A stretch of DNA of 63,646 nt, filler included, from Psammoneis japonica (GCA_008632985.1; 4 parts of 4 records of this genome joined end to end with filler, not necessarily neighbours in it); one strand, 5' to 3'; counted from the first letter of the whole stretch, positions 1 through 61,489 are shown. The notes: a model not told the origin generated them from the letters alone. Made by a program: numbers and translations.

Positions 1-2
1 TG

Positions 3-327
3 TCGTGCTTTTCCCGTGCTTTGTGAAAAACAGGCCACGACCTCAAGGAATCATTTTCAGTCATGACGGTTGACACTTTGCACACTTGCTTTTTGATGAC
101 AAACACGACGATGTCCACCGTTCCGCAAAATTCCATCATTGGAAAATGTTCACCATGGTGGCACTGCAGTGAAGTGTTGATTGAATTTCTGAAAATGGAG
201 TTTTGAAGTGTTCATGCACAGAACAGGGTTGCTTTGTGCAAAAGTCATCATGCAAAGTGTCAATGGTTTTGGGGAAAAATGATTCCTTGAGGTGTCGGTG
301 GAGCGGAGAAGCATGGCAGAAGCACGA
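3..327. repeat. Imperfect ~330-bp palindrome centred on CACTG|CAGTG (162-171)
   Basis: 41-57 is the exact reverse complement of 276-292 (17 bp) and 70-82 of 251-263 (13 bp), both centred at 166.5. 126-136 vs 195-205 (1 mismatch) and 3-10 vs 320-327 have centres 1-1.5 nt off. Confidence 0.85.
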
Positions 328-494
328 GAAAAAAATCCGCCCAAACCCTGATTTTTACAATTTTTTCTACGTAAAAATTCTGCGTGATTTTTGCACCAGT
401 GCACATGGCTCATCGACTTGAGGCAGAAAGCATTCCTTCATTTTTTGATTCCAGCTGGAATCTCCTGAAACTTCTCATGAGATCCATTGTTTTT

Positions 495-1337
495 TTAAAG
501 ACTGACTTTGCCGTCACTGTCATGATCAGAGAGGCTGTAGAATTCCAGACCTTTGCCATCAATCCAACTTTCGACAAAGAAGAAATCACCCGTGAGCAGC
601 AACTCAAACCTCTCCCAAATCATTCTGCTGTGGTCATCAATGTTTGGAGGTGCAATCAGATCATTTCCAAACTTGGCAGTCGATGCAGTCTTGACCAACA
701 TGCCATCATGTGGACTGACCTGCAGGTGGGTCCCAAACCTCACATTCTTGAAGTGGCAAGTCTCATCATTGCTGTCTCGCAAGTGTGCGACCTCCTTCTG
801 AGGGTTTCACAGCAAACCGAAGTCCTTCAAAGCAGCGACCATCTTCATGGTTGTCAAAGCTGTCACCTGGGTCCGTTGAAAGGCACCAGCCATCTCCTTG
901 ATTCCTGCCCCAACTGGCAATCTCTTTGGTGTCTTCATGATCCGTGGCCCCGTCAAAAACCTTTTGAGAGTGTTCAAAGCAAGCCAGGCTTGGTCAATGA
1001 AAAATGCATTGGGGCCTCCAATGGTCACATCCACATGAGTGATGTCATTTTTTAGGGTCTCCCAGTTGTTGCTGTCTCTTTCCATTTGAAGAGCCACGTG
1101 AGGGTGGTCATCAAGAGCACCACACCGGTGCTTCCAACCCAATGTGGCTGAACCCTTCAAAGAATCACCTTGATGATGGAATCGAGTGATGACCTCATCA
1201 TTCGATGCCGTGCAATCCTTTTTGATGGCTGTGTGGTGGCAATCAAAGGTGATTTTTGCATTTGCACTAAATGTTGCATCAAACCGGCATCTCTCGATGG
1301 AGAAGAGCCACCCCAGAGTTGAGATCATGACTCTCAT
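495..1337 (-). pseudogene. Degraded ORF of unknown function (transposon cargo)
   Basis: ORFs 807-1337 and 495-782 are in the same frame, separated by a stop, with protein-like composition. No recognisable motif. Confidence 0.3.
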
Positions 1338-3824
1338 TCATCATGGAGATCTGCGCAGAAGCAGCAGCAGCAGTTGATCGAAGGATGAGAAGGCCACTGA
1401 CAGGGAAACACAACAGTGCAAATTGACTCACCGAATCTTGTTCTTTGGCCTTCTTGTCAGTTTCAAGCTCTCCTCCCCTGGCGCAAAGGTTGCCAGCATG
1501 TGCTGCTGCCACCTGGTTGTTGAAAGAAAGCACAACAGTGGCGCAAAGCACACAGAAAACTTCTTTTTCAAGAGCATGTCTGTAGAAAGATTTTGTGTTT
1601 TCTTGCAGCAAATTTTTAAATTGTGAGTGCACATTGAGTGGAAGAATCATGTGTCTCATCTTTTGCTCGCAATCGTCAGGGAAACTGCCTGCTGGCAGCA
1701 GCATGTGTGCATGAGGAGTTCACGTGCAACGTCCCCTGGTGGTGCAGGGGAGGGACAGACATTGAGCGATGGTGGAATTGAGTCACACAGGTGGGAAAAG
1801 GGCTGGATTTTGAGTTGGGGGAAGATGGTTGAGATTGCAGTTTGGCAGTGCAGCAGGTCAATTGGTCAGTGAGTGATTTGGCAATTGCAAAGCTCAGGCT
1901 TTGAAGGCCAAATTGAGACAGAGTGGAAGAGTGGTGGGTTGGGCCGAAGCATTTGGCAGACATGGTTTGCCAGGCAGCGGTGGCAGCAGGGAGGACAGCA
2001 GATGGAGACAGCTGGGCATGTGCGCATGCAGCATGGGCAGCTGGGTGTTGAAAAGAGGACTCAGCAGTCCAGGGTGGAGCAGGTGGGGCAGGGATGGGGT
2101 GTGTCCTGTGTGCAGCACACTGCACTTGTGTGTTGCATGCATCGCAAGGTTTGCCCAGGCAGGTGTCCTGCATCTTGCCGTGCCGGGCTGTGCGGATCCT
2201 GTGCGCAGCTTTGCCGGCAAGCTGCATGATGCACAGATGGAAAAACTGCAGGTCGGGATTGATGTGATTGACGTCGACTCAGTGAGGTTAATGTTGAAGC
2301 AAGATGCCTCTGATGTGAGATGTGGTGAGCCTCTAAAGCTCACAATGAAGAAAACATTTTCTTTGCTCATTTGTGAATGCTTTGACACACTCTGACAAGA
2401 CCCGCCGGAGTGTGTCAAAACAAATGGCTGCTTTTCATTTCCCATTTTCATTGCGCCAATTGCATCACAACACACAAATGGTTGTTGATGTTGGGAGCAA
2501 AATTTCATTTGCCCTTGCACACATGTTCATTGTTGTGAACCTGTGTTGACTCACAAAGAATCAGATTTCTTTTTTTGTGTTGCACAAAGAGTGCTTTCAA
2601 GCTGTTGACAAAAGTTCTCATGTGTGGACACAATGTGCAAATGATTTCACAGACAAGCTGCCATGGCAGTGTGTGGTTGTTTTTGACAACTTTTTTGCTT
2701 TTGTGGCTGTGCAAACAGTGCCGATTGACAACATGAAGTGGATGTGATGTGTGCCATGCATGAAGGAAATGTGGAGTTGTGGTCATGGTGCATTTCAAAT
2801 GCTGTGACAGACCTGCTGCACTCCTCAGTTTGGTTTCAGAGTTGAGTGACCAAAAGCCAATGTGCAAGGTCCCTGAAACACTTTTGCATGACACTGGAGC
2901 AACCACAGCATGGACTGGCCCAGATTCAGCAGCAAGACTCAACCATCATTTTCATGTTGAACACAGACAGAACAGTGGGGTCAAAAAGGCTCTGGAAGAG
3001 GGCGCAAAATCTTTTTGCTTGAATGTTGATGAGATCTCTGTGCAAGTCTGCAACCACTGCACTGAACAAAGGAAAAATGGAGCCTGCAGACCAAGCAAAA
3101 TGTGTGACAGTTTCAACAGCAGTGTTTGTTTTTCCCCACAAGATGGAAGCAGCTGCTGCTGTGTGCATTCGTGTTCATTGTCATGTTGGATGTTGCTTTT
3201 GGGAGTTTGCTTCTAATTGTGGGAACAATTTCCTTGAGCATGAGCAAGGCTCTCAGCTGTTTGACACTGGAGTTCAGAGCAATTGTGCTTTGAAATTTGA
3301 CTGGCATGTGAGTCAATGAGATGTTGTCATTGTGCATGTCACCTGGCGCTGGAACATCCATCTTGTCAAGCCAAAGCTTGAGTGGCACACAAGCTGAGCA
3401 AAGCAATCTTGTGGCTCTGATGCTGGGCAAGCCTGCCCATCCTCAGGTTTGCAGCATCAGAGGGCTCGACATTGCAACAATGTGCAGATTCACACAGTGA
3501 CATTTTTACAATGTGTTGCAACAAATTGTTAAAATTCAGCTGTGACAAACTTGTGACCAGAGGTCCGTCCATCAAACATTGTTGACAATCTTTCAACAAA
3601 TTAGTTGTGCATTTTTCACCAGTTTCACACAACTAAAAAATTCACCTGATCACCACATGCCAACAAAACATCACAATTTTATGGCAGGAACACCTTCCAC
3701 TGTTGTGATTGTTGCCCATTGCGTTTGTGATGCCGCAACCCAACAATTTTCTGTCAACTGCCATTTTTGACCACAAACATTTGGTCGCTTTTATGTTGAA
3801 CAAAGCCATCAATGCATCTTCCTT

Positions 3825-5692
3825 CTAAGAGTCATCACTGTCATCTGCCTCTTCCAACAAGTCTCCCTCTTCCGACGAGTGTTCCTCTGCTTGCTGCTCT
3901 GTTCCGGCATTCGCAGCATCCTTCCTTCCTTCATCCTGCCTGTCATCTCCACTGTTCTTGTCGCTGCTGTCCAATGTGAGGCTGTTCATCATCTTTGCCT
4001 TTTCCAGACCCTCACTTGGGGCTTTCTTCTTCTTCTTCTCTCCTCCTGACTTGTCAAACTCGTTCTTCGTGACCTCTGCATGCCACCTGTCAAACTCCTT
4101 GCCATCCTTGGAGTTTTTGTCTTTCGTCACCTCTTTGTGGAACTCGTTGAAGCACGTGATTCCTTTCTCTCCCCAAGACTCGTGCTGCTTGTTTGGCTTT
4201 GTGCAGAGAGAGACAGGCACCTTTTTGCGTGGGTCCATTTCCTCACCCAATTCCTTTGCCGTCTCCTTTTTCTTTTGGCATGCCCACACACTCCAACAAT
4301 TTTCAATCACCAAGAGCACCAGAGCCTTGTCAGTGATTGCAGCCATTTCAGTCGCCTTGACCTCTCCTGTTTTGATGGTGCTGCTCCATGCCTTCTTGCT
4401 CTTGGTGTGACAGAGGATGTGATCATAGAACCACTTGTGTGCCTGCTTGTTCCTCCGTTTGCTGTTGGTTGTTTTCAACAGGCTAAATGCATCCCAAGTT
4501 GGCACACACGGGATTTCTTCATCTTGATTTGCACTTTTTCTCTTTCCTCTGGCACCCCTCTTCCTTGTGGCTGCCGCCTTGAGCCTCTTTTCTTTTTCCT
4601 TTCCCTCTTCTTGGGTGACAATGCCTGCAAAGACAAAGAATCGCCATCCCATTCTTTTTTGATGCGTGCACCTCTCAACTCACACACACGCATCACTTTG
4701 CTTGCAGGCCATTGCATCCTTGCTGATTTCTGAACACACGGTGTTTCTTTTGTTGTTAAGTTGCCTTTTTGCCGCCTTCCTTGCCCATTCCTCCCAAGCT
4801 CCTGACCAATTTGCAGTGTCCATGTTGCCACCAGCAATGTTCTTCTTGACAAACAGTGAGATGTTCCCATTGCTTGCCATTTCTGATGCACTTGCGAACT
4901 TAACTTGTGCAAAGAGTTCATTTCTAGCCACCTTCTCAACTTCATGTCTCATCCCCAATTCCTTTGCCGTCTCCTTTTTCTTTTGGCGTGCCCACACACT
5001 CCAACAAATTTCAATTGCCAAGAGAGCCAGAGCTTTGTCAGCGATTGCAGCCAGCTCAGTCGCCTTGACCTCTCCTGTTTTGACGCTGCTGCTCCATGCA
5101 TTCTCACTCTTGGTGTGACAGAGGATGTGGTCATAAAACCACTTGCACACCTGGTTGTTCCTGCGTTTGCTGTTGGTTGTTTTTGCCAGGCTCCTCTTCT
5201 TTTGAGATGCACGCACCTCTCAACTCACACACGTGCATCACTTTGCTTGCAGGCCATTGCATCCTTGCTGATTTCTGAACACACAGAGTTTCTTTTGTTG
5301 TCAAGTTGCCCATTTGCCGCCTTCCTCGTCCATTCCTCCCAAGCTCCTGACCAATTTGTGGTGTCCATGTTGCCACCAGCAATGTTCTTCTTGACAAACA
5401 GCAAGATGTTCCCATTGCTTGCCATTTCTGATGCACTTGCGAACTTGGCTTGTGCAAAGAGTTCATTTCTGGCCACCTTCTTGACTTCACGTCTCATTGC
5501 ATCATGTGCTGCCTGCACACCCATTTGCTTCAATGCTGCCTGAAGCCTTGGGCTCATGGCCGCGGGCTCTGTTGTCCTCCTCTTGTTTGCTGCTGGCTGC
5601 TCTCTAGACGACATCTTGCTCTTTGCACTACAACAATGAGTTGTTTGTGTGCCGTGGAGATCTGCAACTGTCCTTTGGGTCGTGTTGGACAA
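3825..5692 (-). pseudogene. Transposon accessory protein remnant with an internal duplication
   Basis: Motifs ITDKALVLLVIENCWSVW and ESWGEKGITCFNEF resemble the (T)xSDEAFxLLxxENxW / GWSxxGxxRFN family I recall next to diatom Plavaka-type transposases. Acidic C-terminal tail. Confidence 0.6.
4245..5497. repeat. Tandem duplication with deletion: A(4245-4477) X B(4660-4952) A'(4953-5184) B'(5205-5497)
   Basis: Nucleotide similarity between copies; the peptides WFYDHILCHTKS...KATE and NELFAQ.KFASASEMASNGN each appear twice. Confidence 0.9.
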
Positions 5693-6080
5693 CAGCCAGC
5701 CTTTCTTTTTTGCAAGTCATGGCATTTGTTCCTCTCAAACAATGAATGCATCATTGCAAGTGACATTGAAATTTGAAAATGTGTTCATGTGCAACAATGA
5801 ATTGCGAAACTTGCATTGTTGTTGTTGTTGTCATCGCATTTGAACGGAAATGATGTTCTGTTCATTGACGGCATTTGCAAAAGTTGATGTCCATTGTTGG
5901 ATCAAGACAACACAATCCAAATGCAAACATGTCATGCCCACAAGAATCATTCAAATCTGAAAGAGATTTCAATGTTTTCAATGCCATTTTTTGGGTCTTG
6001 TTCCACTTTCTCCCACCACAACAATGCCAGGATGATGAGTCTCAGTGAATGAAAACCGTCTCAATGTTGTTTGATTGACA

Positions 6081-9000
6081 ATGGAAGGGAATTCAATCCT
6101 CTGTCCTGGATGTGGCAAAAGCTTTGTGAGAATTGCTGTGCATTGGAGGTGTGAACCAAGGTGTTGCTCCACTGCCCAAGAGTTGCAAGCCAATCAAACA
6201 GCCCCTGACAACAGCATCACTCCATCTTCAATGGACGGGCCACCCAGTGAAAGTTGCAATGCTCCTTCAACTGGAGATTTTTTCAGTTCATCCTCTGACA
6301 ATGAAGAACCCTGTCTCCAGCGATTTGCTCATAGCAGGTTGGCACAATGCTCCACTGACAGCACCCGTCCTGGCAGCCCCTTGTTCCCATCTCCAGACAC
6401 ACTGCATGGCATGGATGAATTGTCGTCCATGTCATCCAATCACAGCATTGACAATGTTGTTGCCATGAACGATTTGGATCTTGGCAGTGGTCACTCCTTC
6501 TCTGCCTTGTTGGATGTGACAATGGAGGAATCTACACACCCAGATGACATTTCTGATGATCGACTGGGTAAAAGGTGCATTGAACCCGCAGGAGATGCCT
6601 TGGCTTCCACTCCCTCTTTGACCAATCTTGATGGGGCATGTGCAGAGTTGTGCAAGAAGCTTGTGCGGCATCCCCCTGGAATTGTGTGATTGCATTGTTG
6701 AGTTCATCAAGCGGCACACTGGGAACAAGACCATCAAGCTTGGTGCAATTCTTCCATGTAGAAAAGAGTTGATGCACACCTTAACAAGGCACTTCCCTCT
6801 GCCACCCAGCGAGTCTACACCTGCAATGCCAGAGACAACCAGCTGCAAAACCGTTTTGCCACAATGTGTGTCAGTGCCCAGGTGGAGTTTCGTTGCAGTC
6901 TGGGAGCAGTTTTTACTTGACCCTCACCTGTGGCACAGCAGAGAGAACATGGAAAATCCAGACAATCCTTTTGAAAAGTGTGAGGCCAAGGGACCGGACA
7001 ACAAGTGTGTTTTGGCTGGAGAGTGGCACAGGCGTGCCTGCAAAGAGCAGATCACAGATCCAGAGAAAGAATTTCTTGAGTGCAACATCATTTGTGTCAA
7101 CAAAATGGGTCGGACAGTGGGGATGGGATCCCATTGTGGTGAACCCGCAATCATGACCTCCGCTCATGCAGCCTTTGACAAATGGTCTGACAAGAGCATC
7201 TGGAAACCTCTTGGATGTCTTCCCGATTTGGAAAAGATGTCATCCTCTGCTGCAAAGAATCTTTCCAGCAACCAAAAGGCGGAGAAGGGACGCTCTTTAC
7301 GAGACCACCACAACTGACTGCACGTCATTTTAGAGCCACTTCTGGACACAATGAGGTGCGGTGGCATGTGCACATGTGTGCGCCGAGGCGACAAGATTTG
7401 CTTCCTCAAGGTCGTCCCAATTGTTTGTCTCACAATGGGCAATGCAAAAAGCAGAGACTGTCTTGTGGGTCATTGTGGTGGTCACAATTGCCTTCTTCGT
7501 TGCTGCCATTTCTGCATGACAGGATTCCATGGCCTGGGCGACCCATGGATCAAGTGTGACTTCATCCGTGGCTGTGATCTCCTTGAAGTCACAAAAGGTG
7601 CAAACGACAACAACAGAGTGGCAGAAGAACACAAGCACTGGTTGGGCATTTTGAAGCACATGAAGCAACACAATGCAAACACCAATTGTCTTTTGGAGGC
7701 TGATTTTGGCAAACAACCATGTGGCGCAACCCTTGCCACTGCCAGCAACATGATGCATCTTTTTGAGAACGGGACCTTGAAAAGAGTCATTGTTGCCTTT
7801 GTAGACAGCATGACACCTGTTGTGGCTGCTCAGGTGGATGACCCAGTTGAAAGGATCTTTGGCAATCATGGATCAACATGCAAGGCCATGTTCTTGCAAA
7901 CAAACTTCAAAGGTGGGGCTGCGTCACTCACCTTTCTCAACTTGCATCACTGGGCGGGCATGGCTTTTGTGTTCCATCTCATCCCACTCACAAACAAGGG
8001 ATGCAATGTGTGTGAGCCATGCTTCCTTGAACAAGATGCAGATGAGACGTTTGTTCCCAAGGACAGAGACATGCCAAAAGTTAGATTTGAAAAGTTCTGC
8101 AAGCCACCAGGCTGCCTGGATTTGGATGAGGACAGCAGTGAGGAGGAGGAAGAGGCCGGTGATGAAGAAGACGATGAAGGGGGTGAGAATGACAATGAGG
8201 ATGAGGAAGGAAACCAAAAGAAAAAATGCAAGGGAAAACAACTTGACTGCAGTGCATGGCAGTTCATGCAGTTGCTGGAGAATCGTCTTGCATTTCATGC
8301 ATGATGCAGACTCGGCAACCCACCCATCACTCGCAAAACTCCAAGACGGCTGATGCAAAAGACAAACAAGAAAATCCACCTTCTCATTGCCAGGACAGTT
8401 CATTTTGTTCCAAGAAGTGATTGTTGCGGATGGAAGCTTCAGAAGCTGCACAAAACACTCCATCTTGCTGTGTTTCTTCACTGCTGTTGCCCCATGCAAT
8501 GAACTTTGACGCAGGGTTGGGTGAATGCCTCCTGAAGGATTTTTTCAAGCTTCCCTTGTCAACCGCTCAACAACGGAGCCCAGACACCTTCTTAAAGCAG
8601 GTGGTGGTGCGGATGGAGGATCAAATGTGGCTGAACCTTGCCATCTCTGCTGACAGCTGGTTCTTGCCTAAAACAAAACAAACGGAAAAGAGCTCCAATG
8701 TTGTGGAAAACCACAAGCTGGGAGGAAGCACATTTGCTCTTGCTTGCAGGGAAGCAATGGGTGCTGTGAGATGGGAATGGAACGGCACACAGAGTCAATG
8801 CCAGGTTCATCCTGTGTTGCTTGATTTCATGTCAGAGAAATGGGAGGAATGTGTGGGTCAAGGCAATGATGATTCATCACTCTTGTGCAGGACAGAGTTT
8901 TGCAACAAGAACGGAAAGGATGCACACAGTGCACACCCAGACTGCAACAGCAAAGGACCATGGTGCGACTTCACCTGCATCACCTTTGGCACCCGGCAAG

Positions 9001-9392
9001 GCAAACAACAATTTCCCTCCCGTTTGCTGTGTTTTTTCGAACAAGAGGATGCAGGATTGCTTTTTGCGGTGGTCCATCCATGCACCTGTCAAACCGACCT
9101 GAGGAGCATGAGGCAACGTTTGCAACACACAAACCTGGTTGGTTGCTGGCCGTTAGATCAAAAGAGAAACCACTGGCTTTCATCTCCCGAGAAAACAGTC
9201 TTCTCACCTCATCTGCGTGTTGTCCCCATGGGGGCTGTGGGAGACAACACAATGGCACATGAAGAAGAACCAGGAGCAGTGGAAACACAAGAAAAAACGA
9301 GACATGTTTGGGCTGTGCAAGACAGAAGGGCCATTTGGTCAGATCTTTTTAATGTGACCAACAACATTGTTCACGAGACTCACGCACATTAA
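6081..9392 (+). pseudogene. Plavaka-like DDE transposase, broken by stops and frameshifts
   Basis: Ordered motifs: FLLDPHLW, GEWH (GxWY), IICVNKM (IIYxDKT), EPAIMT, WKPLGCLPDL (WRPLGYxPDL), GNAKSRD.LVG, MMHLFENG, FLQTNFKGG, NFDAGLGE..LKDFFK, AHPDCNSKGPWCD (AHPxYxxxGPWYD). Confidence 0.8.
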
Positions 9393-9411
9393 AGGCATTG
9401 ACGATTGTCAT

Positions 9412-10474
9412 CTACGATTTCCTTCCAAATGCCAGGAACTTAACATTTTCCGCGTTGTCAAGTGTGGCTCGGCAGATGTGCAACAGATCGGCCTCAACAG
9501 TTTCTGGTGTGCGCGTGAGGAGATCTTGCTCAGACAATCCCAGGCAAGCATCTTCCTGATCCAACGGTTTCCCCAACCACAGTTCCTGTTTGTTGCGGCC
9601 AATGAGGTTGCTTGCTTGGAAAATGCTGAAACTTTGTTTTGCCTGATCCGCGTCCATGGTGTAAAGTTGGAACGCAGCATGCAGTTCCATCCAGTGTCTC
9701 CAAAGTTGGCTCAACATGGCCTGAGCAAAAGGAATCACTGTCAATGCGTCCTCCACCTTTTTAGAGAGTGCGCTTTGCAGTTCAATGAGATTTTGGAAGA
9801 ACTGACTGCTTCCAAACCAAGCATCATGCCACTCTCCATCTGGCATCCAGTGGCAGTCCAACATGATTTGATTGAAACCGTGATCCTTGAAGTCAACCAC
9901 CTTGCTAAAGTGATCCTTGACTCAATGCACAAAATCATGAGAACATGCATTGCAGTTAAGATGAAGGTCTTTGTGACCATCTTGGATCGAAACAGTGCAA
10001 ACGCAACTGTCATTGTCGGCACTGAATTCCTCAAATGCCATTGTGCGTGCCTCATCTCTTTGGTGTTGATCAGAGGCAACCATTGCTGCCCCCTCAGCTG
10101 AGCACAGTTCAGCACATGACAGATTCCTTGCATTGACCGGATGCATCATTGCCAACCAAAGCACATTTTTTGGGCACATAGATTCACGTTGGAGCAGAAA
10201 GGTGTGGTCAGTCTAAGATGGACATCGCACAACGAACAAGACGGCGACTTGCTCCATGACTTGGTCGCCCTCCAGACAGTCACTAATTTGCACGAACAGG
10301 ACTTTTCGTTGGCATTGACTGCATTTGAAACATCAGTGGTGTTGTCGTTGACAAAAGCCCTTGCATCACCATCTCCATCACTGTCCATTGACGACTCAAC
10401 AGATGCTTCCAAAGAGTTTCCAATCCAGTTGGAAGCCAACCACAACACATCCACTGCGGCTGCCTTCCTGTTTT
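9412..10474 (-). pseudogene. Degraded ORF fragments, probably the 3' part of the cargo gene split by the LINE
   Basis: Minus-strand ORFs 9412-9900, 9922-10179 and 10146-10454. The frame of 14449-15804 rejoins here once the LINE is removed. Confidence 0.35.
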
Positions 10475-13400
10475 AATCGCAATCAATTTAAAACACATCA
10501 GGACAATGACAATCAACGAGAGGCAAAACAATGCCTGTGGATTCTCTTCATCGCCTTGCCGTTGGAGTTGCGATGCAGGCTCCCAAGTGCATGTTCCAAA
10601 TTTCTTGATCATTGATTGACCATCAGAGAACAACAAAAAAATCCAAACCCAATTTAAAGTGCCATCACACCTTTGCCCAGCAACACCAGCACCGGCCAAT
10701 CCACACCTCCGGTGCACCCTACGAGGGATGCAGCAGAAGTTGATGCAATCAGCCTGAATCAGCATCCCTCTGAGGGGGCGCCTGTCAGAAATGACTGGTG
10801 ACAGTGTGTGTGCTGCGAAGCGCCAGGCGCTTTGCTTCCTTCAAACTGTCTTTGAGTCTGGGCCGTGCCATTGAAATCCAATTTTGCACTCGTGTTGTTG
10901 AAAATGTACGGTGCTCTTTGACTGAGTCCAGCAAAACTCCACGGTCTTTGGCCAGAAATTCCTGTCTTTTGTTGCATGTTGTGGTCAATTCGGCCTCCAC
11001 TTGTCATTGCTGAGATGACTGCCAAGTGGCAGCGTCATGGCCATGCACATGTTGATTGTGCTCTTCCCACAAACCCCACCATTGTTTCCATGTGTGTGAG
11101 CCTGTCAGGACTGCCCAGTTTGGAGACTGTCTGTTTTCCTCCTGACAGCGCCGGAGAACACCCGAGTCACACAGATGTCCCGACTGAAGAACATTCCAAA
11201 GAGTGGAAAACCATCCACCAAACACTTGTTGCCATCCCACACTGGACTGTGTGCGCCACAGAGCTCTGCAGTGGCAATCCAGGTCCTCCGGATGTTGCAT
11301 TTCTCCCTTGAACCATGCTTCAATTGAGTCAAGTAAAAAATCTTGCAGTGCAGGCATGGTGTCGATCCCACCACAATGCTGCCGCAGGCCTTGCAAGAAT
11401 TTTCTATGCCAGGGTTCATTGTGCAGACATTGCAGAATGTGATCCCTGTCTTCCATTGGGTGTTCACAGAGCAAACAATGGTGAGGGCAGACTGGGTTGC
11501 AACAATGGGTCATCTTGTTTGTCGGAAGCAGATCATGTGCAAGTTTGAACGTTCCAACATTGCGTTTGGAGCGTCGTTTGATCAGAACTGCGTGAGCATC
11601 CCAACCAATAAAGTCAATCACTTCCGGTCCCCACTGGTTCCGTTCTGAGATGTGTTCCAACAGTTGCTGGGCGGTGGCGGCATGTCTGGCTTGACGTTTG
11701 TGGCTGGAAGTCAGCGCACCATCCTGCAGACTCAAGCAAGAATGACAATGTGGTGGAGGTGGGACCACAGAGGCATCACCTTGGTGATGACCTTGACATG
11801 CACCTGCTGGCCGGTCAGCTCGCATGTTCACTCTTGCATTTGGTGGAAGTGAGTGAACTGGGGCGTTTCGATCTTGATGTCCCTTGACCCACTGAACTGA
11901 TGTCGCGGATGAGACTAGACAGGATGTGTCGGGCGTCTCCAGTGGCATGCGAGTGTGCACAATCTCATTGATCACATCCCAATCTGCAGGGAGAGCATTG
12001 GCTCTGTGATGTTGAATGTGGAGTTCTCTGACTTCTTTAGAATTTTCCTCCAGCGATGGTGCAGGGAGGGAGCTGGTGAGCTGATCGAGGCAATTCACTA
12101 AAGCTCTGTTGTCGCAGTGAACTGTTGCATCCGGGAGCTTAGAAAGACGGCAGTGTTCCACAAATCAGCAAAGGAATCAGATGACAGAGAGAATCCTGCA
12201 TGCCTCCGCTCTGCACGATGATGGTCATCTGCCAAAAACGGGTCCCGCACAATCGACCAACGGGGTGCCGTCATGAGCAATCGTCCAACCAAAGGTCGCG
12301 CCTTCTTTGACAGATCCATCACTCCCTGCACATAACTTCAAGGAAGAGAAGTGCAGGAGAAGTTCATCTGACAGTTCCTGCAGTTCAAGAGCATCAAACA
12401 ATGATGCCTCCCATTCAGGTGACAAGTCTGATGCACTTGGAATTGCGTGGCATCCAAGCATGTCTCTGAAATTCTGATGATGTCTGCTTGAATTTCCGCA
12501 GCTGCCTGTGTGCAATCATTGAAGTCTCCACCACGTTTGTCAAACTGACAGCCATTGGCATTAAATGCGTGCAATCGGGTGTGTGTCGGAGCTTTGGGGA
12601 GGAGGGGATCTCCGATTGGTTCATTTGACAACAAGCTAGAATGGTCAATGGCACTGGAGGGAAGAGAGTGACTTCTGCCTGACAACAACTGGCTCCACTG
12701 CTGAGCAGCGGGATTGCTTGTAACCAAAGGGGCATCACCCCTCATTTGGAGGCCATGCTTCCTTGAAGGAAGGCTGGGAAAGAAGACTCCTGTCTGCGTC
12801 ATGAGGAAAAGGCAGGTGAGATGGCTGGGCCTGCCTCACAGAAAATCCGAATTGTCAGCCTCAGTCATGGATGTGTCATCGGGAGGGTGGTGAGCGGAAG
12901 AGCCTGCTGGGACCAAAGTGGCTGGTTTCTTACGTTGTGGAGAAGATGTTGCACCTGGGATTGCTGAAGCAAATGTTGCCTGAGTCATTGTCTGCATCTG
13001 GGAAGCAAGCGCAGTTTGCAATTGGGAGGCTGTCACATTTTGCAACTGAGTTGAAAGTGCAGAAAGAGATTCTTGGTGTTTCTTTTCCAGGTCAGCGAAC
13101 CACTTCTCTTGTTCCTGCTGATTCTTGATGACCGGCTGTTGCAGCTCCGCCATTTCAGCAGACTGGTTGGACATTTCTGAAATGGGAAGGGCTCCAGGCA
13201 TGACCGCTCCTGTGACATTTTGCAGAACTTGGGGGAACAGGTGGGAAAACTGCCATGCACTCCAACACTTTTTGGGGCCGGAGGAGCTGCAGAAGCAGAG
13301 GGCAAGGGTGGAATGGTGGAGCCCATTGGAGAGATGTCCAAAACATCAAGGGACACCCAACTCTGAATGCTTGCTGAAGAAATGGACTGGACTGTGTTGG

Positions 13401-14497
13401 ACATGTCATCATCAATTCCAGGAATCAGCGGCTTCAGCTGACCACTCGGGATCTCTGTGTCATTCTGGAAGATGCTCGGAGACATGACGTTTTGCTGGTT
13501 GAAAGCATTCCTTGTCAACCAAAATGTTGCACCGCTGGGTGGCTGAAGTCTTCTTGGAGGGCACCATGTCCAACACACCTTTGGCCTTCTTGATCGTGTC
13601 GGTCAGGTAGAAGGAGACAGCTCCCGTGCAATGGTGAAGAGGGACAACGTGCGTCTTGGCACTGTTTTTGCATTGCTTTCGCACAGCTTCATTGAAAGCT
13701 TCCAGTTGAGAACAACACCAATGGGACAAGACAATGGAGAGGGGATGTTCTTTCAAGACTTCCAACAGGGCGTGAATCACATCTTTAGCTCACTCTTGTG
13801 GAGTCTCAACAGCACAAAAGTTAGTGTGCAAGGATGGGTCTTGAGGCAAAGAGGCAGACTGCACTGTCAACCAGAAGGGGATTTGGGAGCAACTGCGTGG
13901 AGGGAGAAGAGCCATCAATGGCTTTTGGGCTAAATCGGCTGGACAGTGCTTCAGCAAAAGATCAACCAGCAGGGCTGCTCAGGAGAGATCCGCTGCGGTT
14001 TCATCCCATTTGCGGCGGTGCACACAAATGCCATTGTCTTTCAGGACCTCATCAACAAAGGGAATGTTCCTGATTTCTGCAATGGACAGAGACATGCGGA
14101 TGCTGTGAGCAACAACAAACGTGGGAGAGTGACGGTGCACACCACCGACATGGTGGAGGAGTGAGTCCAGAAGTCCACTCGACGACGTTGATTTCGGGAA
14201 TTTTTAAACCGCAATTCGAAATGATCGACGTCTGGTTCATCAGTGGGTCTTGGGAGGCTTTCTGTTGCAGGGTGTTGAGGATTGTGGTGTGACCCATGGC
14301 CAACACTGTTGATGCATTGTCATCAGAGGAGGTGAGTTTGAAGCAAATGGCAATTTCCTTTAATGCCAAACTGTCCGGTTTTCCTGATCCAGTCCTCATT
14401 GGAGTGGATGGAGATGAGTCCTTGTCGGGTGATGGATCTGGCTGAGTGTCACCAGTGGGGCCAACCTGCGGCAGCGGAGGGATCATCATGGTGACGA
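10475..14497 (-). mobile_element. Ambal-like non-LTR retrotransposon (ORF1, APE N-terminus, RNase H, CCHC tail) with the RT domain deleted
   Basis: APE start RLHAFNANG...ISETCLD (about 12450-12580). RNase H motifs AGSDGSVK..ATFGW, HCDN, QWVKGHQD, NMRADRPA. Zinc knuckle CLLC....EDRDHILQC; QSSVGWQQVFGG; W..LWEEHN..VHG. Candidate TSD GTTTT at 10470-10474 and 14498-14502. Confidence 0.85.
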
Positions 14498-17043
14498 GTT
14501 TTCAGCACAAAATTCGTGTAGATTTCTGCGTGGGATGTGTCAATGTGCACTTCTGCAGAAAAGCAACCATCAGAGAACAACAGAAAAAGATGCTGCCTGC
14601 AACAAAAGACATTGCAGACACCCATTTTCTCCCAAGCTGCGCTGCCATCGCAGAGCAAACACTCTGGATCATTCTTGCCGCATTGGACGATGTCAAAATC
14701 TTCCAACATCTGTCCCAAAAGTGCATCCTGCTGATCCTTGGGGACCTTCATGTCATCCATCTGCTTTGCAGCCCCCAACTTTGCTGCGGGATGCACCAGA
14801 TTGCGCAAATCAGGGTGAGGCTTGATTCCGACACCGTGTGGTGACAACAGCTGAATGGTGGTCATGAGCTGGAACTCTGTGCAGTCTGCACCTTCACTTT
14901 CCCTTGTTGAAACCACGCTTTTGAACTTGTCCTCAATTGCCTCATGATGAAAAGATGACTTTCCAGCATTTTCGTTGATCCAGTCAATTGCATCCACTGC
15001 ACCAGTGACAATCAAGCCCATCAAGCCATTTAGTTTCATGCCACACTTGGACACAAACACATCTTCGAAGTGCAGACCTGGAGTCCTCCAACGTTGGTCA
15101 TTGCGGTCACCCACAATGCTGACGAATGTCCTTGTGGCTTCTTGGAAATGATGGAGGACCCAATCACCACCCTCAAAAGGACAGGTTTGTCCATTGGTGT
15201 TGCACAACAAGCAGTGAAAACGGGAGAATCCAGTCTGCCAACCACCAACCACAGAGTGACGAATGCAATCGTAAACACCGGCAAAATGGACATTTTTGAT
15301 CAGTGCTGTTGCACCAAGTGAAAAATTTAAATCACATGCAATGACAAATGGATGACGGATCCTTGGAATGACAACAGCCGGGTGCTTTCCCTTCTCTGAT
15401 GGCTCAGCATTTTTTCCAATGTCCTCGTTGACCCAGGAATGGTGTGGGTCAAGGAAAAAATCTTCAATGTTCAAGTGACTTGGCTGGCCAGAGGGAGGAC
15501 AACAAGGGCCGCGGCATTGCAACATTTCTGCAGCATGGGAAAGATCAAGTTTTGCAAAATGACCTTTGACGCGCAATTGAAAGTTGGTGCAACCATGCAA
15601 CTGTTCAACATGATTGCCAGCTTTTGCTTGTCCAGCAGGGATGAGCTTGAGTGACCAGGACCAACCAACAGAGTCTCGAAGTGCAGTGCAAAGAGCACTT
15701 GTCTTGGTGCATCCCTCCTTGTCACAATCTTCATTGTCCCTGTGGAGCTTGGTTTTCCGTGTCTCAACTCTTGGGGCAGAGGATGATGTGCACTTTGCTT
15801 GCATTTCAACGTTCTCATGTCACAAGTGCTCTGCTCCAATCATTTCTCGAAGTGAAGCTGCAAAAAGACTGTCGCGTGTGGGGTCGTTGAAGGAGCGCAT
15901 TTGCCTCAAAGCAACCGCATGGATTTCATCCTCACAGACTTGCATGGCATCCAACATTGAAGCTGTCATCAACTGAACTTTTTTTGGAAGGTTGGGCCAA
16001 TCGTCCTTTCCGTAGATTGCACCAGGCTTGTGTGTCGGTCCCACAAGTGCCAAGTCACTGTCAGTGACATCGCAGTTCTGGCCGCAACAACCAAACTGGA
16101 TCCGACAGCACAGCTGGCATGCTGCTCCATCACATTTCTCATTTGCCTCTCCGTGTTCCAAAATGGCATGGAGGATCGACGCAACACTAAATCTCAATCC
16201 AAAGAAGCATTTCTGAAACATCTTGTCTGTGCAATGAAGATGGGTGATTGCCTCTGAAATGTGAGAGGATGACTGGGTGGGGCAGGCAATTGCAACCACG
16301 GATTCAGTCGTTGGATTCTTGGGAGCCTGGTCATTTTCAAAACCATGCAGAAACTTTCGAAGATCATTTGCCAAGTAAAAATCAGAGCCACTGTGAAACA
16401 GCTGGTGCCAGACATGATTCCCCTTGAAGCCACCAGAAATGGGAGTTTCCTCAAACACAACACCAAATCTCAATCCAAAGAAGAGTTTCTGAAACATCTT
16501 GTCTGTGTGATGAAGATGGGTGATCACCTCTGAAATGTGAGAGGATGACTGGGTGGGGCAGGCAATTGTAACCACGGATTCAGTCATTGGATTCTTGGGA
16601 GCCTGGCCATTTTCAAAACCATGCAGAAACTTTCGAAGATCATTTGCCAAGTAAAAATCAGAGCCACTGTGAAACAGCTGGTGCTGGACATGATTCCCCT
16701 TGAAGCCACCGGAAATGGGAGTTTCCTCGAACACAACAAGGTGAGAATGCTGTTTCTGCACATCACCAGGAATCGCAAGTGGAGAGGGCTCCGGAAAAAC
16801 GTCTTTGAGCTCCTCCTTTGTGAAATTTTCAGGCAAGGGAGGAGGCGAGGAAGCAATCACACTGAGCAACGGCCACAATTTGCGAGAATCAGCAACATGT
16901 TCCTCTAGAGTTGGAACGTCTTGGAGCAACTGCATTTCACCTGGAGATGTGTCAACAGTCACACCATTGTTTGGCACACTGAGACTGGTGCCAGTGGAGC
17001 AGAGGGAGTCTGAGGAGGAGGAGAAGCAGAGGAACAAGGACAA
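14498..17043 (-). pseudogene. Large degraded cargo ORF of unknown function, with an HxD motif and a 92-aa internal duplication
   Basis: ORFs 15820-17043 and 14449-15804 are in one frame, separated by a single TGA. Globular-looking sequence with Tyr largely absent. Confidence 0.55.
16186..16737. repeat. 276-bp (92-codon) in-frame tandem duplication
   Basis: VVFEETPISGGFKGNHV...FFGLRF occurs twice; offset 276 nt (16293 vs 16569). Confidence 0.92.
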
Positions 17044-17199
17044 GGTAAAAAGAACAATGAGAAACCAAAGGAGTCATGACATTGTGTTGCAATCTTGCCT
17101 TTCTGAAATTTTCGTTTCTTGGCATTTTTCATTGCAGAGGGAACTGCATTTCCAACCTTTTTGGGATTGCACTGACTGGCAAAGTTGTGGAGACGGGCT

Positions 17200-18193
17200 T
17201 GCCACATTGATTTGAAACAATCATGTCCACATTTGCTTTTGCCAGAATTGTTGGCAGCGGAAACAACATCGTCATTTTGCACACACTTCAAGAGCTGAGC
17301 ATTGACATGACGAGCATGCATTTGTTCACTTTCGACATCCATCATCACCATCCTGAGAGGCTCTTCCCAGGAGGTGTCATGAGTGCAGAAGAGCGTCTTG
17401 ACACAAACAGGGAACAAGACAGGGTCTTTGTCCTTGGTTGTCTCGTGGTGACCAAGTGCAAGAAAATTCTCCAAAAAGTTGATGTGAACAGAAGCCTCAT
17501 TGCAGGTGCCAAACAATGTGTGGAGCCAGCAGTCGCAATCATGATTTTTTTCCGGGCCGTGTGGTAAATTCTTGTCACAGAGAATCAAGAAACCAATGTG
17601 AAGATGTTGCGTGCATTGTAGAACCTTCGCTTCAAAACTCTTCAACTTGAGGTGGTTCACCAGTGGCTTGCCCGTCGGGTCGCACAATCCAGGATCATTG
17701 ATCATCTTGCACAACACATTTGTCTTTGCCATCATGTTTGTCATCATGTCTTTTGTTTTGCCTTTGCACCAACAACTTTCACATCCTCTGTTTTGGGGGC
17801 TTGGCAACACTCCAAGGCGTGAGGATGTTTGGCGCTCTGGCTGGAACAACTCCATCCTTTTGCAGACAGGAAGTGCAACAAACTTTTGTGCCCAAGTTCC
17901 TTGGCAATGATGCGGTTCACAGCCACAAGCTCTACAAAAAAATGAGGTCTGCCCTTTGACTTTTGCCAAACATGGGTGAACGCAACCCAGTTCAGAGATG
18001 GCTCACAAGTGCAATCGTGGTGGAACCGCACCTTTGATTTGAGCATCTTGATTGTCACTTTCACACGGGGTCGCTCCTTGCTGTCAACAACACCAAAGCC
18101 ATTGGCAAACAAAGATTCAAACATGGCCTCATCAAGGTCAGAATCATTGTTGTCTTGTGACAGAGCGGCAACTGATTGGCTTTGTGGTGCCAT
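17200..18193 (-). pseudogene. Degraded ORF of unknown function (transposon cargo)
   Basis: Overlapping frameshifted ORFs 17744-18193 and 16959-17969 with protein-like, Tyr-free sequence. Confidence 0.35.
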
Positions 18194-18527
18194 GGTGCTG
18201 TTCGCAGTAAAAAAAAGGGTTTGTGCAGGATGTGGCAGACTTTTGCGTGGGCGGTTTTACATGCGCACCTGGCAGGAAGGGTCAATCCCACCAGGTGCAC
18301 CGGCATGGGGCAACAGTGGGTGATGGGATCAGTGGTGCCAAAATTGTGAAGAGTGAAGCCAGAGAAAGATGTTTGTGCTGGAAACAGAGGTTGATTTCTG
18401 TGCACACACTTTTGCAGGTAAAATTTGTGTGAGAGGCTTCAACTGACGCACGCGACGATCACAGCGAAAAATCCGGCAATGCGTGCAGCATCAAAAGAAC
18501 TCTGAAGATTGATCCAAGAAAAAACAG

Positions 18528-19060
18528 GTGACACAAGAACAAAAAACACACAACAACAAACAAAGGATGAACGAAACAACAAAGGTGCCGAAAAGAGAGA
18601 AGGAGGTCGATGCAACTGCGGCGGAGAAGGCAGAGACAGTGGCTGCGAAGACAACGACAAAGGAAAAAGGGCTGGGAAAGGAGAAAAAGACAAAGGCAAA
18701 AGGGTCCAGAAAGGAGGAAAACACAATGATGCCACAGCCTTGGGAGGGTGATGTTCGGGAGATTCTGCCGATGACGGGTGTCCGCCAAGAAGCAAGAGGT
18801 CATTTGTTGGCTTTTCTGTTTGGAGACGAAGACGAAAGTGACCTGGCAGTGGTGGCCCTGCAGGACTTGGAGAGGTGAGGCATGTTGTTCTAAATGGAAG
18901 AAACGGAGGAGGGAGAGGAAAAATGGGATTGATTGGATGAACATGCAGTGCATGCTTTGCATGATGATGATGGCAGAAAGTGCAAATGCAACAATCGGCA
19001 AATTGTTCATTGCTGCATGTCCTTGTGACAACGGCAGAGATGTAAAATGTAGAAGATGAG
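18528..19060 (+). pseudogene. Lys/Glu-rich degraded ORF
   Basis: ORF 18528-18878 is charged and low-complexity and continues past stops. Confidence 0.3.
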
Positions 19061-19949
19061 AGCTTTCAGATATGAAGATTAGGAGTTTTTTTATTGTCAC
19101 ACAAAAAGCGGAAACTGTCATGTGGAGCAAGAACTTTTTAACATGTGGACATGGGTGGAACACCAAATGCACAGATGCCACAATGTCGAGCCCTCTGATG
19201 AGACTGTGAGCTGCCAATGTTTGAGATGAGTGAGGCACTCAATCAAAAGCATTGGTTGCATTGCACAGGGGGCTAGATTTGAGGTTTTCTGTTGAGAAAA
19301 TAAAAAAATTGGGCTGCCATGTCCAACCGGTGGGTCAGATTTCCTTTTGCAAAAACACGAAGTGCACGGTGTAATTTAAAAACAGCGCGAGCTCCGAACT
19401 CCAGATTTCCTTGTCCCTCCACCCTCCACATTCAACATCGCAAATCGCACACCGCACACCGCCCGGTATTTCTCGACCATGACACTTCACACTCAACACG
19501 CCACGCACTCTGCACTTTCCGACGTGTGGTGTCCCTTTTTTCACAGTTGATTCCAAAGTGTGGAGAAGATACACTAGGAGGACGACACGATACACATTCC
19601 AAAGTTGAGTTTAATTGAGAAATTTGGGCCCGCATGAAATTCTATCGGCACTCATCACTGGCATCTGGCATTCGTCGTGGTTGTCTTTCGACGGAGGTGT
19701 TTGCTTTCGAAGAACTTGTAGTAGCGACGCAAACCGTTGCTGATGCGGCTCGAGACGTCACCAGGGATGTCTTGACTTTGGAGGATATCGAAAGGGCCAT
19801 TTTGTATAAATCAAGTCTGAGCAAAACGATTGACGAGGCATGCACCCACCGAACCGGGAAATTCCATTTAACTCGATTCCTTGGAAATGCTCAAACTACT
19901 TGGAGCTTGTAACGTTGGACGAATAATGTGGCTACTTTGTAAAAGTGAC

Positions 19950-20885
19950 AACCCAAATGTCGGACTAAAAAAAAAAAGAATACTCGGCTTAACACCGAGT
20001 GACAACTACCAACGAGTATGCAAAACGGCATATGTACTCAAGGTCCAGCACAAGCGTGACATACTGCAATACAACAAATAGCGGGCGTATTGATGGTGGT
20101 GGCTGTGTTAAAATATACACGCTAGACCGAGTCAACGACAAATACTTTAATGTCAACATCGGACGAAAATGAGGCTAAGGAATGTCAAACAGCGAACCTC
20201 CCCATTTAGCAACTCCTGCAGGAATTGGAGGAACGAGGAATCCTTTACGAACTTACCGCGACACGTGCAGAACTCGAGACTCTGTTACATCAAAACAGAC
20301 AAGCCACTTCTTCTCATCAGACTAACAAAAAAAGTACCAATCATGGAGATCTCAGATGAATTAGATTACCGGGGTATCAAATATCCTTCAACCGCTTCCC
20401 GTCCCGAGCTGGAGGCACTCCTAAAAAAGAAGGACACTGCGGAGCAATCAATACTACCCGTGGCGCCCGTACGTAACGGCGCCGAGCAAAATTCAAAACC
20501 GACATTAACGATAACATCGCCTTCAACTGCTGGATGGAACGGGATGAATGAGGTATTGTGTACCTACAAACCGCAACGCTTGCCATGTTGGAAGATCTTG
20601 TGCGGCAGTCACGTGGAAACGCGCAGCTGGGACCAATCCCAGCAAAAACACAACCATGACATACTCAACATCACAGCCAGAATCCCAGAGATTGACGAGC
20701 AGCTCCGAGTGTTGTGCTGGAGATGTTGACAGAAAACAAAAAGGTGCAAGATGCGCGGTTGGCGGCCGCAAAAGAAAAAAAAAAACAATACTCGGCTCAA
20801 CGCCAAGTAACAATGGCCAAAATAAAAGAGCAGGCAAAACGGCATATATACGCGCTCTAGGTCCAGTACAAGCGAACAAGTAACT
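19950..20885 (+). repeat. Two diverged direct copies (about 19965-20065 and 20770-20880), possibly J-domain-like remnants
   Basis: Shared A-run + TACTCGGCT.AAC.CC.AGT.ACAA...GCAAAACGGCATAT...AGGTCCAG.ACAAGCG; peptides ILGLTPS...KTAY and ILGSTPS...KTAY. Confidence 0.55.
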
Positions 20886-20929
20886 GAAGTACAGGACGAA
20901 AAAGCAATTATTCTTCAAAAGATGAATTA

Positions 20930-21160
20930 AATCCCGTTGTCATGGGTCTGCTAAATTCGTACAAGGACAAGCAGTTTCTTTACATGCTGGTCAATCTATT
21001 TCAAGGTGGAGAGCTGTCTAGCATTTTTCGTACACGTGAATTTGACGGCGCTAAGCTGCATGCATCGTCAAGGTATTATTCATCGCGACTTGAAAAGGAA
21101 AATTATCGTGCTGGATAGTGATAGTTATTGTGCTTTGGTCGATCTTGCGTTGGGTGAGTA
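20930..21160 (+). pseudogene. AGC (PKG/PKA-like) protein kinase fragment
   Basis: LLNSYKDKQFLYMLVNLFQGGEL, then a frameshift to MHRQGIIHRDLKRKIIVLDSDSYCALVDL. The PEN and DFG motifs are degenerate and the rest of the domain is absent. Confidence 0.8.
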
Positions 21161-22298
21161 TTATGCCGGTTGTAGTTGGCGGTCGCGTGTTAACTCTTTT
21201 AAAAACTGCGTGGAAGGTCTTCTCACGTTGTTGCTTGTCGCGACGATTTTCGAACAGCCACCGAGGCAAAGGGTAAGATGTATACCTGTTGTTGGACTCC
21301 AGTCTACATGGTATCTGGAGTAGGTAAGTACTCTACTTTATTGAGTCTTTGGTATTATTACGTTTCTGTTCATGACTTTGAGAATCACATTGTTAATAAT
21401 TCAACAATATTTCACATGGATGCAACTTATGACACAGCCTTGGTGCCGATCTGTGGAGTCTCGGGGTTCCCATTTGCGATACATCATTGGACACACTACT
21501 TTCATGATTTCTGATTGCTCTTGCATTCCCTGGTCTTGTTCGCTGGCCTTGTCAACACCAAGACAAAAAAAACTCCGAGGCCTTCTCTTAGAGTGCGACA
21601 CTCTAACTCTCTCTCTCTCTCTCTCAAGCACCCGGAGGAGTTGGGACTCGAGAAAACGCTAGAGGGACTGCTCGCCCTCATTCATCCTCGCAAGTTGAGT
21701 ACCGGTTACCGGTAGCACAGAAATCCAGCACATTGAGCATGATGGCTGGCCTTGACATGGCTACACTACATCATATGGATAAGTTTTTGTTAAAGCACAA
21801 GGATACCTAGTATCTCTACTGAGCTGTTGCTCCTCACATGAGGGATAGGCCTTGATCAACCCCCGTGCACCAGCACAAACTGGCCAGCGGTCAACCTCTC
21901 TCTAGCTATAGTAGACTATAACAGTAAGATGGGTAGTCAACACCTGCAGGAGCAGATGGCTCTCTTGAAACTCATTTAAAGCAATAGGTTCGTCAATAGT
22001 CGAGCACACTGCACATCTTTGTAGCAACAGGTTCATCTACAGATTATCTTGCACTGTGTGAAATATCTCACACCAGGAAGCAACGATTGACTTTTTCTCT
22101 CTAGAGAGTTCCACTATGTCGACAACAAAAAAGTTGTCTCTGTTTCTGATTTTACGAAGCCTATAGGCCCTCGCTAGATCGCACACACGGTCTTTGACAT
22201 CAAATTATCGAATAGGTATTGACAAGAACTAGACAAGGTATGAAGCCAGCAAGTATTCCTCTAGCAAGAGGTCAATGTCTCCACAAATAACACGTTGT

Positions 22299-40020: not shown

Positions 40021-40109
40021 TGATTGTTGCATGATTAAAAAACGCGCCAAATAAAGCTCTAGCTACCGGTAGTAGCGCGGCATGCACGAAAACTGTAACC
40101 TGAAAGGGA

Positions 40110-61485: not shown

Positions 61486-61489
61486 ACCC

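Follow-up and report, generated by a model that had tools for sequence, protein, structure and literature searches.

Flank-dependent loss of TpA, with gain of TpG and CpA, in blocks of the Psammoneis japonica genome

In fungal repeat-induced point mutation (RIP), which sequence duplication triggers, C>T changes turn CpA into TpA, enrich TpA and lower G+C. The present work concerns a window of 63,646 nucleotides, filler included, which is the whole stretch of DNA analysed and joins four parts of the Psammoneis japonica genome (GCA_008632985.1). In this window, three TpA-poor blocks (A, B and C) alternate with gene blocks, used as an internal control, and block A holds the remnant of a probable Plavaka-family (KDZ-type) DNA transposon. 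The likeness to RIP lies in mobile elements riddled with transitions at one dinucleotide, in dead genes and in sharply bounded blocks. The chemistry and the sign are by contrast opposite: the window loses TpA and gains CpA and TpG. Decay of 5-methyl-CpG (5mCpG) affects the same blocks and yields the same products, TG and CA, but it cannot remove TpA.

The only earlier description of TpA-directed hypermutation of foreign DNA in the literature searched is a 2026 preprint on Bigelowiella natans (Mettrop et al., bioRxiv 10.64898/2026.01.13.699255), which reports that 231 of 302 de novo mutations fell in integrated nucleocytoplasmic large DNA virus (NCLDV) and virophage sequences. All of these mutations but one were A>G or T>C, and the GC-biased ones all lay on TpA. 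According to the same source, the rate was raised about 1000-fold, the process was active in some lines only, and the NCLDV region, which is single-copy, had a Rho TpA of 0.45. TpA-poor coding sequences were enriched in DDE and reverse transcriptase (RT) domains, and an ADAT2-like protein was proposed as the agent. The main text of the preprint makes no mention of context, flank, trinucleotide, CpG or diatoms (10.64898/2026.01.13.699255).

The window resembles the system described for B. natans in that A:T>G:C changes at TpA alone give TpG or CpA on one strand or the other and stay within locally bounded foreign or silent DNA, with low TpA, high CpA+TpG and DDE/RT genes. It differs from the de novo mutations and moderate depletion reported in that rhizarian alga, in carrying a fossil signature (observed-to-expected ratio, O/E, 0.04-0.07) in transposons, together with CpG decay. 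The traits of the B. natans type were found here: TpA>TpG/CpA changes, on indirect evidence, their presence in mobile DNA and not in host genes, and low TpA with high TG/CA. In our view, this window is best classed as the second case, after B. natans, of TpA-directed hypermutation of foreign DNA, here in a different lineage and near completion. Full-text searches, outside which most subscription journals lie, found no paper on such hypermutation in diatoms; transposons of a diatom-like genome that carry this signature would extend the process to a second major lineage. Beyond the preprint's main text, the window provides a flank rule with a more than 200-fold range and shows which base pair changes; the quantitative rule appears not to be in print.

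TpA depletion and the flanks of the surviving sites

TpA density was 4.24 per kb in the TpA-poor blocks (128 in 30,160 bases) and 37.2 per kb in the gene blocks (1,183 in 31,802), the latter having combined O/E values of 0.53 for TpA, 1.00 for CpG and 1.18 for CA/TG. Every 2-kb window inside the blocks had a TpA O/E of 0.01-0.13 and a TG/CA O/E of 1.53-1.93. The loss is restricted to the blocks, and their edges are at most 150 bp wide. At the A/gene edge, the last sparse TpA lies at 18891 and dense TpA starts at 19043; at the gene/B edge, dense TpA ends at 35891 and the next TpA comes only at 36363; at the B/gene edge, TpA is sparse until 39746 and dense from 40005. The fourth edge, before block C, falls at a scaffold linker and is thus uninformative. 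CpG shifted within about 100 bp of TpA at the edge between the first gene block and block B. However, CpG depletion varied seven-fold between blocks (O/E 0.09-0.62) while TpA depletion was uniform, and block C, with a G+C of 0.55 at 58-61 kb, kept most of its CpG and had the lowest TpA per kb.

Overall G+C was 0.47-0.49 in the TpA-poor blocks and 0.47 in the gene blocks. The trinucleotide deviation was limited to words containing TA (blocks vs genes: ATA 0.23 vs 1.17, GTA 0.78 vs 1.23, CTA 1.29 vs 0.94, TTA 1.45 vs 0.75), and AA/TT had an O/E of 1.24-1.35 in blocks and 1.19 in genes. Since TA-containing trinucleotides alone are abnormal, the pattern fits the original prediction of an enzymatic preference rather than neutral GC drift.

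The TpA-poor sequence stands in read-derived contigs. Contigs from the public run X1 (depth about 30) showed no difference from the window on both sides of the A/gene edge and equal depth across it; X1 is possibly the assembly's own data and is thus not independent support. Copies in X1 that were 90-95% similar differed from the window mostly by transitions (63 of 79 differences), and other copies reached a summed depth of up to 1600, against 30.

The context of the surviving sites was compared with expected class counts calculated from first-order flank composition. Three scaffold joins (28014-28113, 55809-55908 and 62256-62355), each of 100 bases made of 44 N, the 12-base linker TTAATTAATTAA and 44 N, had to be considered beforehand: the TTAA in the linkers gives an artificial TpA (three in block C), and the linkers were masked before the final counts. 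With R for purine and Y for pyrimidine, the 128 survivors comprised 2 RTAY (24.2 expected), 72 YTAR (40.8), 36 RTAR (31.9) and 18 YTAY (31.0), so that residual contexts clearly depart from flank composition (chi-square p=7e-11 over four classes) and the earlier claim that survivors mostly have a 5' pyrimidine or a 3' purine, with RTAY very rare, is borne out. When the flanks of TG/CA sites were taken as the null, before linker masking, RTAY accounted for 2 of 131 (binomial p=3e-13), distributed as 1/93 in block A, 0/17 in block B and 1/21 in block C. Gene blocks were biased the other way, with 365 RTAY observed and 257.5 expected. Positions 350-18270 held 91 TpA (1 RTAY, 48 YTAR, 26 RTAR and 16 YTAY).

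The base at -2 was even more telling. Of 258 half-sites, 148 carried T there, where about 65 would be expected (p about 1e-30). A TY half-site was present on one strand or both in 104 of the 128 survivors, compared with 26.7% of TG/CA sites (p=8e-38). Both results agree with the proposed protection of TYTA/TARA. Survivors were evenly spaced (coefficient of variation of gaps 0.95) and therefore do not derive from one unmutated patch. Their surroundings were barely richer in A+T (0.547 vs 0.516), and TCTA/TAGA is as protected as TTTA/TAAA, which indicates that an A/T-tract effect is not the main cause. In line with this rule, all nine Tyr codons in block A open reading frames (ORFs) of at least 150 aa stand in TYTAY, the preceding codons being ttt, ttc, atc, gtt, ctt and gtc. 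The Tyr residues said to follow an NTY codon were recovered among these nine for WFYDH and DFYLA (twice each), AIYGK, EIYTN and GVYDC, but SFYLT was not among them.

Each TpA was then treated as two half-sites, of class P (T at -2, Y at -1), y (V, i.e. not T, at -2, Y at -1) or r (R at -1), and relative survival was defined as the TA share among TA+TG+CA in the blocks relative to the gene blocks. It decreased from 0.88 for PP, or TYTARA (20 TpA left), to 0.27 for Py (41), 0.19 for Pr (43), 0.11 for yy (11), 0.02 for ry (11) and 0.004 for rr, or RTAY (2). With the Plavaka relatives as the baseline, the class order was unchanged and PP was again undepleted. Survival was roughly multiplicative (ry and Py fit), with implied r:y:P rate ratios of about 2.8:1.1:0.07, and the two halves of a TpA thus act largely on their own; RTAY is rarest because it is a good target on both strands. 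Accordingly, the idea of RTAY as the preferred target holds insofar as this class is depleted most, but it is not a palindromic target as such.

Expressed as TA/(TG+CA), survival by half-site was 7.0% for TCTA, 6.9% for TTTA, 3.8% for CGTA, 1.75% for TGTA, 1.1-2.1% for the other half-sites with Y at -1 and 0-0.8% for the remaining ones with R at -1. An A at +2 protects whatever the +1 base is, TACA reaching 1.75% against about 0.7% for TACC and TACT. On the A strand, T-A-Y is thus fast (TAT at least as much as TAC), T-A-R-B (B, not A) slower and T-A-R-A refractory; the same rule on the T strand makes R-T-A fast and T-Y-T-A refractory. Either enzyme specificity or DNA shape may cause this preference.

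The base pair that changes was sought at TY-[YR]-Y sites, where the product should be TG if the A beside the 3' pyrimidine is the target, and CA if the flank 5' of T governed the A of the same strand. TG/CA counts were 583/338 in the blocks (1.72), against 371/353 in genes (1.05; Fisher p=1e-6) and 1070/1169 in relatives (0.92; p=2e-15). Book-keeping gave about 176-181 TA>TG and zero TA>CA at these sites; at VY-TA-Y, it gave about 259-332 TA>TG and 73-112 TA>CA, near the predicted 2.5:1. Among lost Tyr, Cys outnumbered His 2-3 to 1. The pair hit is the one whose A has a pyrimidine on its 3' side (TAY to TGY).

Some side observations concern these same counts. On the plus strand, RTAR survivors outnumbered YTAY survivors (36 and 18, each expected at about 31), while in the plus-strand Plavaka remnant they were equal (4 and 4). 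TACG (half-site CGTA), with 11 TA against 290 TG/CA, was the best-surviving TAY context (others 0-1.75%), on small numbers; a methylated C beside this target might hinder the mutator. At TY-[YR]-Y in all blocks, the gain of TG (about +240) exceeded the loss of TA (about -86 to -125), and CA was flat though CG was down by 106-132. In this flank, CpG decay also seems to favour one product (TYCGY to TYTGY), which could stem from methylation or deamination that itself depends on the flank, or be an artefact of the baseline.

Mobile-element remnants and the direction of change

The remnant at 6075-9392 is probably that of a Plavaka/KDZ-type DNA transposon, by transitive homology. Its ORF at 7318-8301 had 262 homologs at E<=0.001, and the PF18759 Plavaka cut-off was passed by four of nine homologs tested; the window's ORFs, themselves without a Pfam hit, match P0002 (E=8e-56) and P0005 (1e-39), which both pass PF18759. 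Over the 882 aa of its three ORFs, Tyr is absent, while Cys makes up 5.9% and His 4.5%; the 150 relatives have 2.9% Tyr (median 2.8%), 2.3% Cys and 3.3% His. At eight columns where at least half of at least eight homologs have Tyr, the window has none, and reads TGY at four, CAC at two, Arg at one and Glu at one; at 17 columns with at least 30% Tyr, it reads Cys nine times and His three times. Other conserved residues are largely kept (His 11/11, Trp 8/10, Gly 22/26, Phe 21/29).

The closest intact relative, P0001, is 57-61% identical over 557 aligned residues. None of its 16 Tyr is kept in the window (8 Cys, 4 His, 3 Phe, 1 Asn), and Y>C tops the 222 mismatches; next come V>A, I>M and I>T, also outcomes of TA>CA/TG. 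In the three comparisons, Tyr positions thus read TGY/CAY or Cys/His in 6/8, 12/17 and 12/16 cases. Furthermore, 20 related Plavaka loci from metagenomes, retrieved by an alignment-based scan (a scan with a single mutated ORF gave no relative), had TpA O/E values of 0.35-0.66, and this ordinary TpA content means that the family is not natively TpA-free. The proposal of a mutator acting on TpA is supported by these results, since Tyr positions of relatives read Cys or His here and related elements elsewhere have normal TpA. Judging from these alignments, the loss of TpA is mutational and runs from TA to TG/CA.

The same trend was observed in a second element, unrelated to the Plavaka transposon. 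Two fragments resembling non-long-terminal-repeat (non-LTR) retrotransposons, in blocks A and C, align with the distant relatives P0271 (zf-RVT, weak) and P0272 (Exo_endo_phos). Together they keep 0 of 18 Tyr of the former and 0 of 28 of the latter, the commonest replacements being Cys and His. Two long ORFs at 14452-17073 carry five of the nine surviving Tyr codons, all TYTAY; for one of them (14452-15819), a word-based homolog search found no homolog. Block B showed no recognisable gene in the Pfam scan of its ORFs, and its origin is not identifiable from sequence.

Comparisons between copies did not help in dating the loss. Internal paralog pairs showed 23 CA/TG double differences, 30 of CG vs TG/CA and 5 of TA vs TG/CA, and the flanks of the double differences were not enriched in R..Y (5 of 20 classifiable). 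Between the window and other genomic copies, 18 YR differences were found, none involving TA. Such comparisons cannot separate TA from CG ancestors and therefore give no date.

Possible mechanisms and rival explanations

From a mechanistic point of view, we propose that the three blocks would be dead mobile-element DNA that has been silenced in a diatom-like nuclear genome, where a mutator restricted to them would turn TpA into TpG/CpA (A:T to G:C transitions) until refractory sites remain. T-A-Y would be hit fastest. The rate at T-A-R with C, G or T next would be lower by a factor of about 2.5, and T-A-R-A, with a rate about 40 times lower, would be almost immune. With both strands hit and the halves of each TpA roughly independent, RTAY would fall about 250-fold and TYTARA would stay undepleted, while 5mCpG decay would proceed in the same domains at an unrelated pace. 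The likeliest agent would be a polynucleotide adenine deaminase with activity on DNA, which turns A into inosine (read as G) and may serve genome defence like the one proposed for B. natans. The parts of this explanation that name no enzyme appear nearly certain; the data show the direction of change, the target dinucleotide, the confinement to the blocks, action on both strands, the flank rule and the mutating pair. Taken as a whole, DNA adenine deamination included, it is the best explanation and seems somewhat more probable than not to be right; enzyme class, defence role and time of action are what we infer.

Several points weigh against it. No deaminase gene was found among the genes and domains of the window, the process may no longer be active, given that no de novo event was seen, and deamination of A and a change starting at the paired T cannot be separated from sequence alone. 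The flank rule is unlike the preferences of ADAR, fungal editing, TadA and BjADAT2. The TG bias expected at TY-TA-RB was not seen (TG/CA 0.86 in blocks and 0.86 in genes, a small class), and two of the four His outcomes relative to P0001 have TY upstream, where Cys is predicted. Survival of Pr (0.185) is about three-fold under-predicted by the independence model (about 0.06), and the baselines are host genes and relatives of 33-40% identity, not true ancestors.

A comparison with enzymes of known preference shows where the difference lies. UAGA is the anticodon-loop context of tRNA-Ser(AGA), a natural ADAT substrate, while TAGA is protected in the window. TadA and ADAT2-ADAT3, of which BjADAT2 and base-editor TadA are DNA-active forms, need a U/T 5' of the target A (U33-A34 of tRNA), as T at -1 is obligatory here; the target motif of TadA is UACG (PMC10027721), with a pyrimidine at +1, yet TACG is the least depleted TAY context of the window (3.8%). 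BjADAT2 is active on DNA and prefers GAA (PMC10354150), which does not deviate in the blocks (0.91, against 1.00 in genes). ADAR prefers G/A at +1 and favours U at -1, and fungal sexual-stage editing prefers A/G at +1 and +3 (PMC10027721). They share the A-to-G read-out and the U at -1, but they favour a +1 purine, whereas TAR is protected in the window, and they act on RNA, which cannot account for heritable changes in both strands of a DNA transposon. In the comparison called for by the original prediction, survivor contexts thus matched none of ADAR, TadA and polymerase eta. The flank rule can tell the process from ADAR, TadA, BjADAT2 and polymerase eta, can screen candidate enzymes (expected A:T>G:C at TAY, TARA spared), and can help to locate affected DNA elsewhere, in genomes other than this one, and to date it.

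The change may instead start at T, the thymine of R-T-A being oxidised or modified by a TET/JBP-like enzyme to 5-hydroxymethyl- or 5-formyl-uracil, pairing with G and becoming C, with T-Y-T-A as a poor substrate. The base pair and the flank would be the same, and all half-site and product counts fit equally. Indeed, 5-formyluracil causes T>C changes, 5-hydroxymethyluracil of dinoflagellates is concentrated at TpA and TpC, and KDZ/Plavaka-type transposons accompany TET/JBP genes in fungi. However, the window yielded no TET/JBP gene or domain, literature searches not aimed at such a base turned up no report of it in diatoms, and the B. natans authors favour deamination (10.64898/2026.01.13.699255). 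We regard this thymine route as unlikely.

The residual TpA may also be newly made (C>T at CA, G>A at TG), its context reflecting its making. Some TpA must arise by back-mutation, given that no dinucleotides are commoner than TG and CA, and internal copies often differ by non-YR transitions (36 of 141 substitutions). Yet RCAY+RTGY is as common as YCAR+YTGR (1508 vs 1492) and only two RTAY are present, so context-dependent removal is needed anyway, and is sufficient. In addition, the TA share of TYTARA is as in genes (0.88), as expected if it was left untouched, and TYCA and TGRA are not visibly depleted. This origin of the survivors is thus improbable.

Polymerase eta-like error-prone repair of methylated DNA, upon repair of 5-methylcytosine deamination, would also produce A>G at TA, as in the second phase of immunoglobulin hypermutation, where published work links this polymerase to the WA hotspot motif. 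The common domain edges of CpG decay and TpA loss, within about 100 bp, are in agreement with it. The signature of polymerase eta is nevertheless WA, both AA and TA being mutated, while AA/TT is not lowered in the blocks and non-TA trinucleotides are normal; nor does the TpA O/E of blocks A, B and C (0.07, 0.06, 0.04) track their CpG O/E (0.39, 0.09, 0.62). Such repair is, on balance, a little less credible still than new formation of the survivors.

The blocks could, lastly, always have been TpA-poor, through foreign native composition, selection against TpA, GC-biased gene conversion or a modified-base sequencing artefact, in line with the lack of a recognisable gene in block B and parts of A and with the best DNA run being possibly the assembly's own; but relatives have normal TpA and Tyr, conserved Tyr to Cys/His changes destroy proteins, biased conversion should deplete all A/T-rich words and raise G+C where TA words alone change, and short-read-type contigs agree base for base while paralogous copies differ at fixed TG/CA sites, so that these four candidates were rejected, the whole reading is very improbable and, where the Plavaka and non-LTR remnants are concerned, already largely refuted. 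A further candidate that was rejected is RNA editing of a retro-intermediate, both strands and a DNA transposon being affected.

As an extension of the deamination proposal, and a rather doubtful one, diatoms and chlorarachniophytes may share a defence that is the mirror image of RIP, in which a sequence-specific enzyme, neither a characterised adenine deaminase nor a characterised thymine modifier, erases TpA in silenced foreign DNA with four-base specificity (hitting T-A-Y, sparing T-A-R-A). The immunity of TARA might then be due to a protective mark on that adenine and not to poor recognition.

Other features of the blocks and the gene control

The features of the window are listed in Table 1.

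Table 1. Coordinates of blocks, element remnants and other features in the window
Feature	Position	Strand	Remarks
TpA-poor block A, probable dead mobile-element island	1..18900	none	TpA O/E 0.07, CpG 0.39, CA/TG 1.66
Tandemly duplicated ORF segments	3828..5716	minus	two surviving WFYDH Tyr codons (ttcTAT, tttTAT)
Probable Plavaka-family (KDZ-type) DNA transposase gene remnant	6075..9392	plus	frames 6622-7314, 7318-8301, 8421-9389
Probable non-LTR retrotransposon ORF remnant (RNase H/zinc-binding end)	10824..12631	minus	aligns with P0271, P0272
Surviving RTAY sites	10907..10908 (block A) and 55963 (block C)		both GTAC
Two long ORFs	14452..17073	minus	internal 276-bp tandem duplication (16179-16738)
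Gene block 1	19500..35700	none	S28 peptidase, DUF3684/sacsin-like gene, others; RTAY over-represented
Two overlapping-frame ORFs, 212 and 269 aa	28171-29546	minus	Tyr-rich; gene block, beside scaffold join
Weak 25-nt inverted arms, block B	35921-35945 and 39773-39797		
TpA-poor block B	35950..39900	none	TpA O/E 0.06, CpG 0.09, CA/TG 1.74
Gene block 2	40000..55700	none	ABC-2 membrane protein, PPR-like protein, cyclase plus AAA ATPase gene
TpA-poor block C	55910..63646	none	TpA O/E 0.04, CpG 0.62, CA/TG 1.62
23-bp tandem arrays, block C	56556-57158, 57349-57417, 57646-57763, 61248-61486, 62181-62254		TpA-free
Weak integrase-like (rve) stretch, block C	60644-61246	plus	
Probable non-LTR RT fragment, block C	61553-62170	plus	

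In blocks A-C, TAA and TAG are nearly gone and TGA is the remaining stop, and 30 kb hold 139 ORFs of at least 90 aa, in overlapping frames of the two strands. Pfam searches of these 139 gave sub-threshold noise, plus the weak rve hit, and most of them must be false. For annotation, this means that blocks open in six frames, with long, false, Cys/His-rich ORFs, would mislead gene finders. The 23-bp arrays of block C have up to 27 copies with 78-86% matches, and further N runs lie at 57418-57645 and 62762-62861.

The genes of the window are ordinary host genes. For the S28 peptidase gene, every one of the closest named relatives is from a diatom, with at most 58% identity, hence the term diatom-like for this genome. 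Run X2 covers 19340-22000, on the gene side of the block edge only, and contains a GT..AG joint that skips 21322-21435, like a spliced transcript. The two Tyr-rich ORFs at 28171-29546 had no Pfam hit and a TpA content near normal; if they are mobile-element genes, they escaped the mutator. A direct duplication of 750 bp with 69% identity (42246-42952 and 44855-45560), also within a gene block, keeps a normal TpA density, which suggests that duplication alone does not cause TpA loss.

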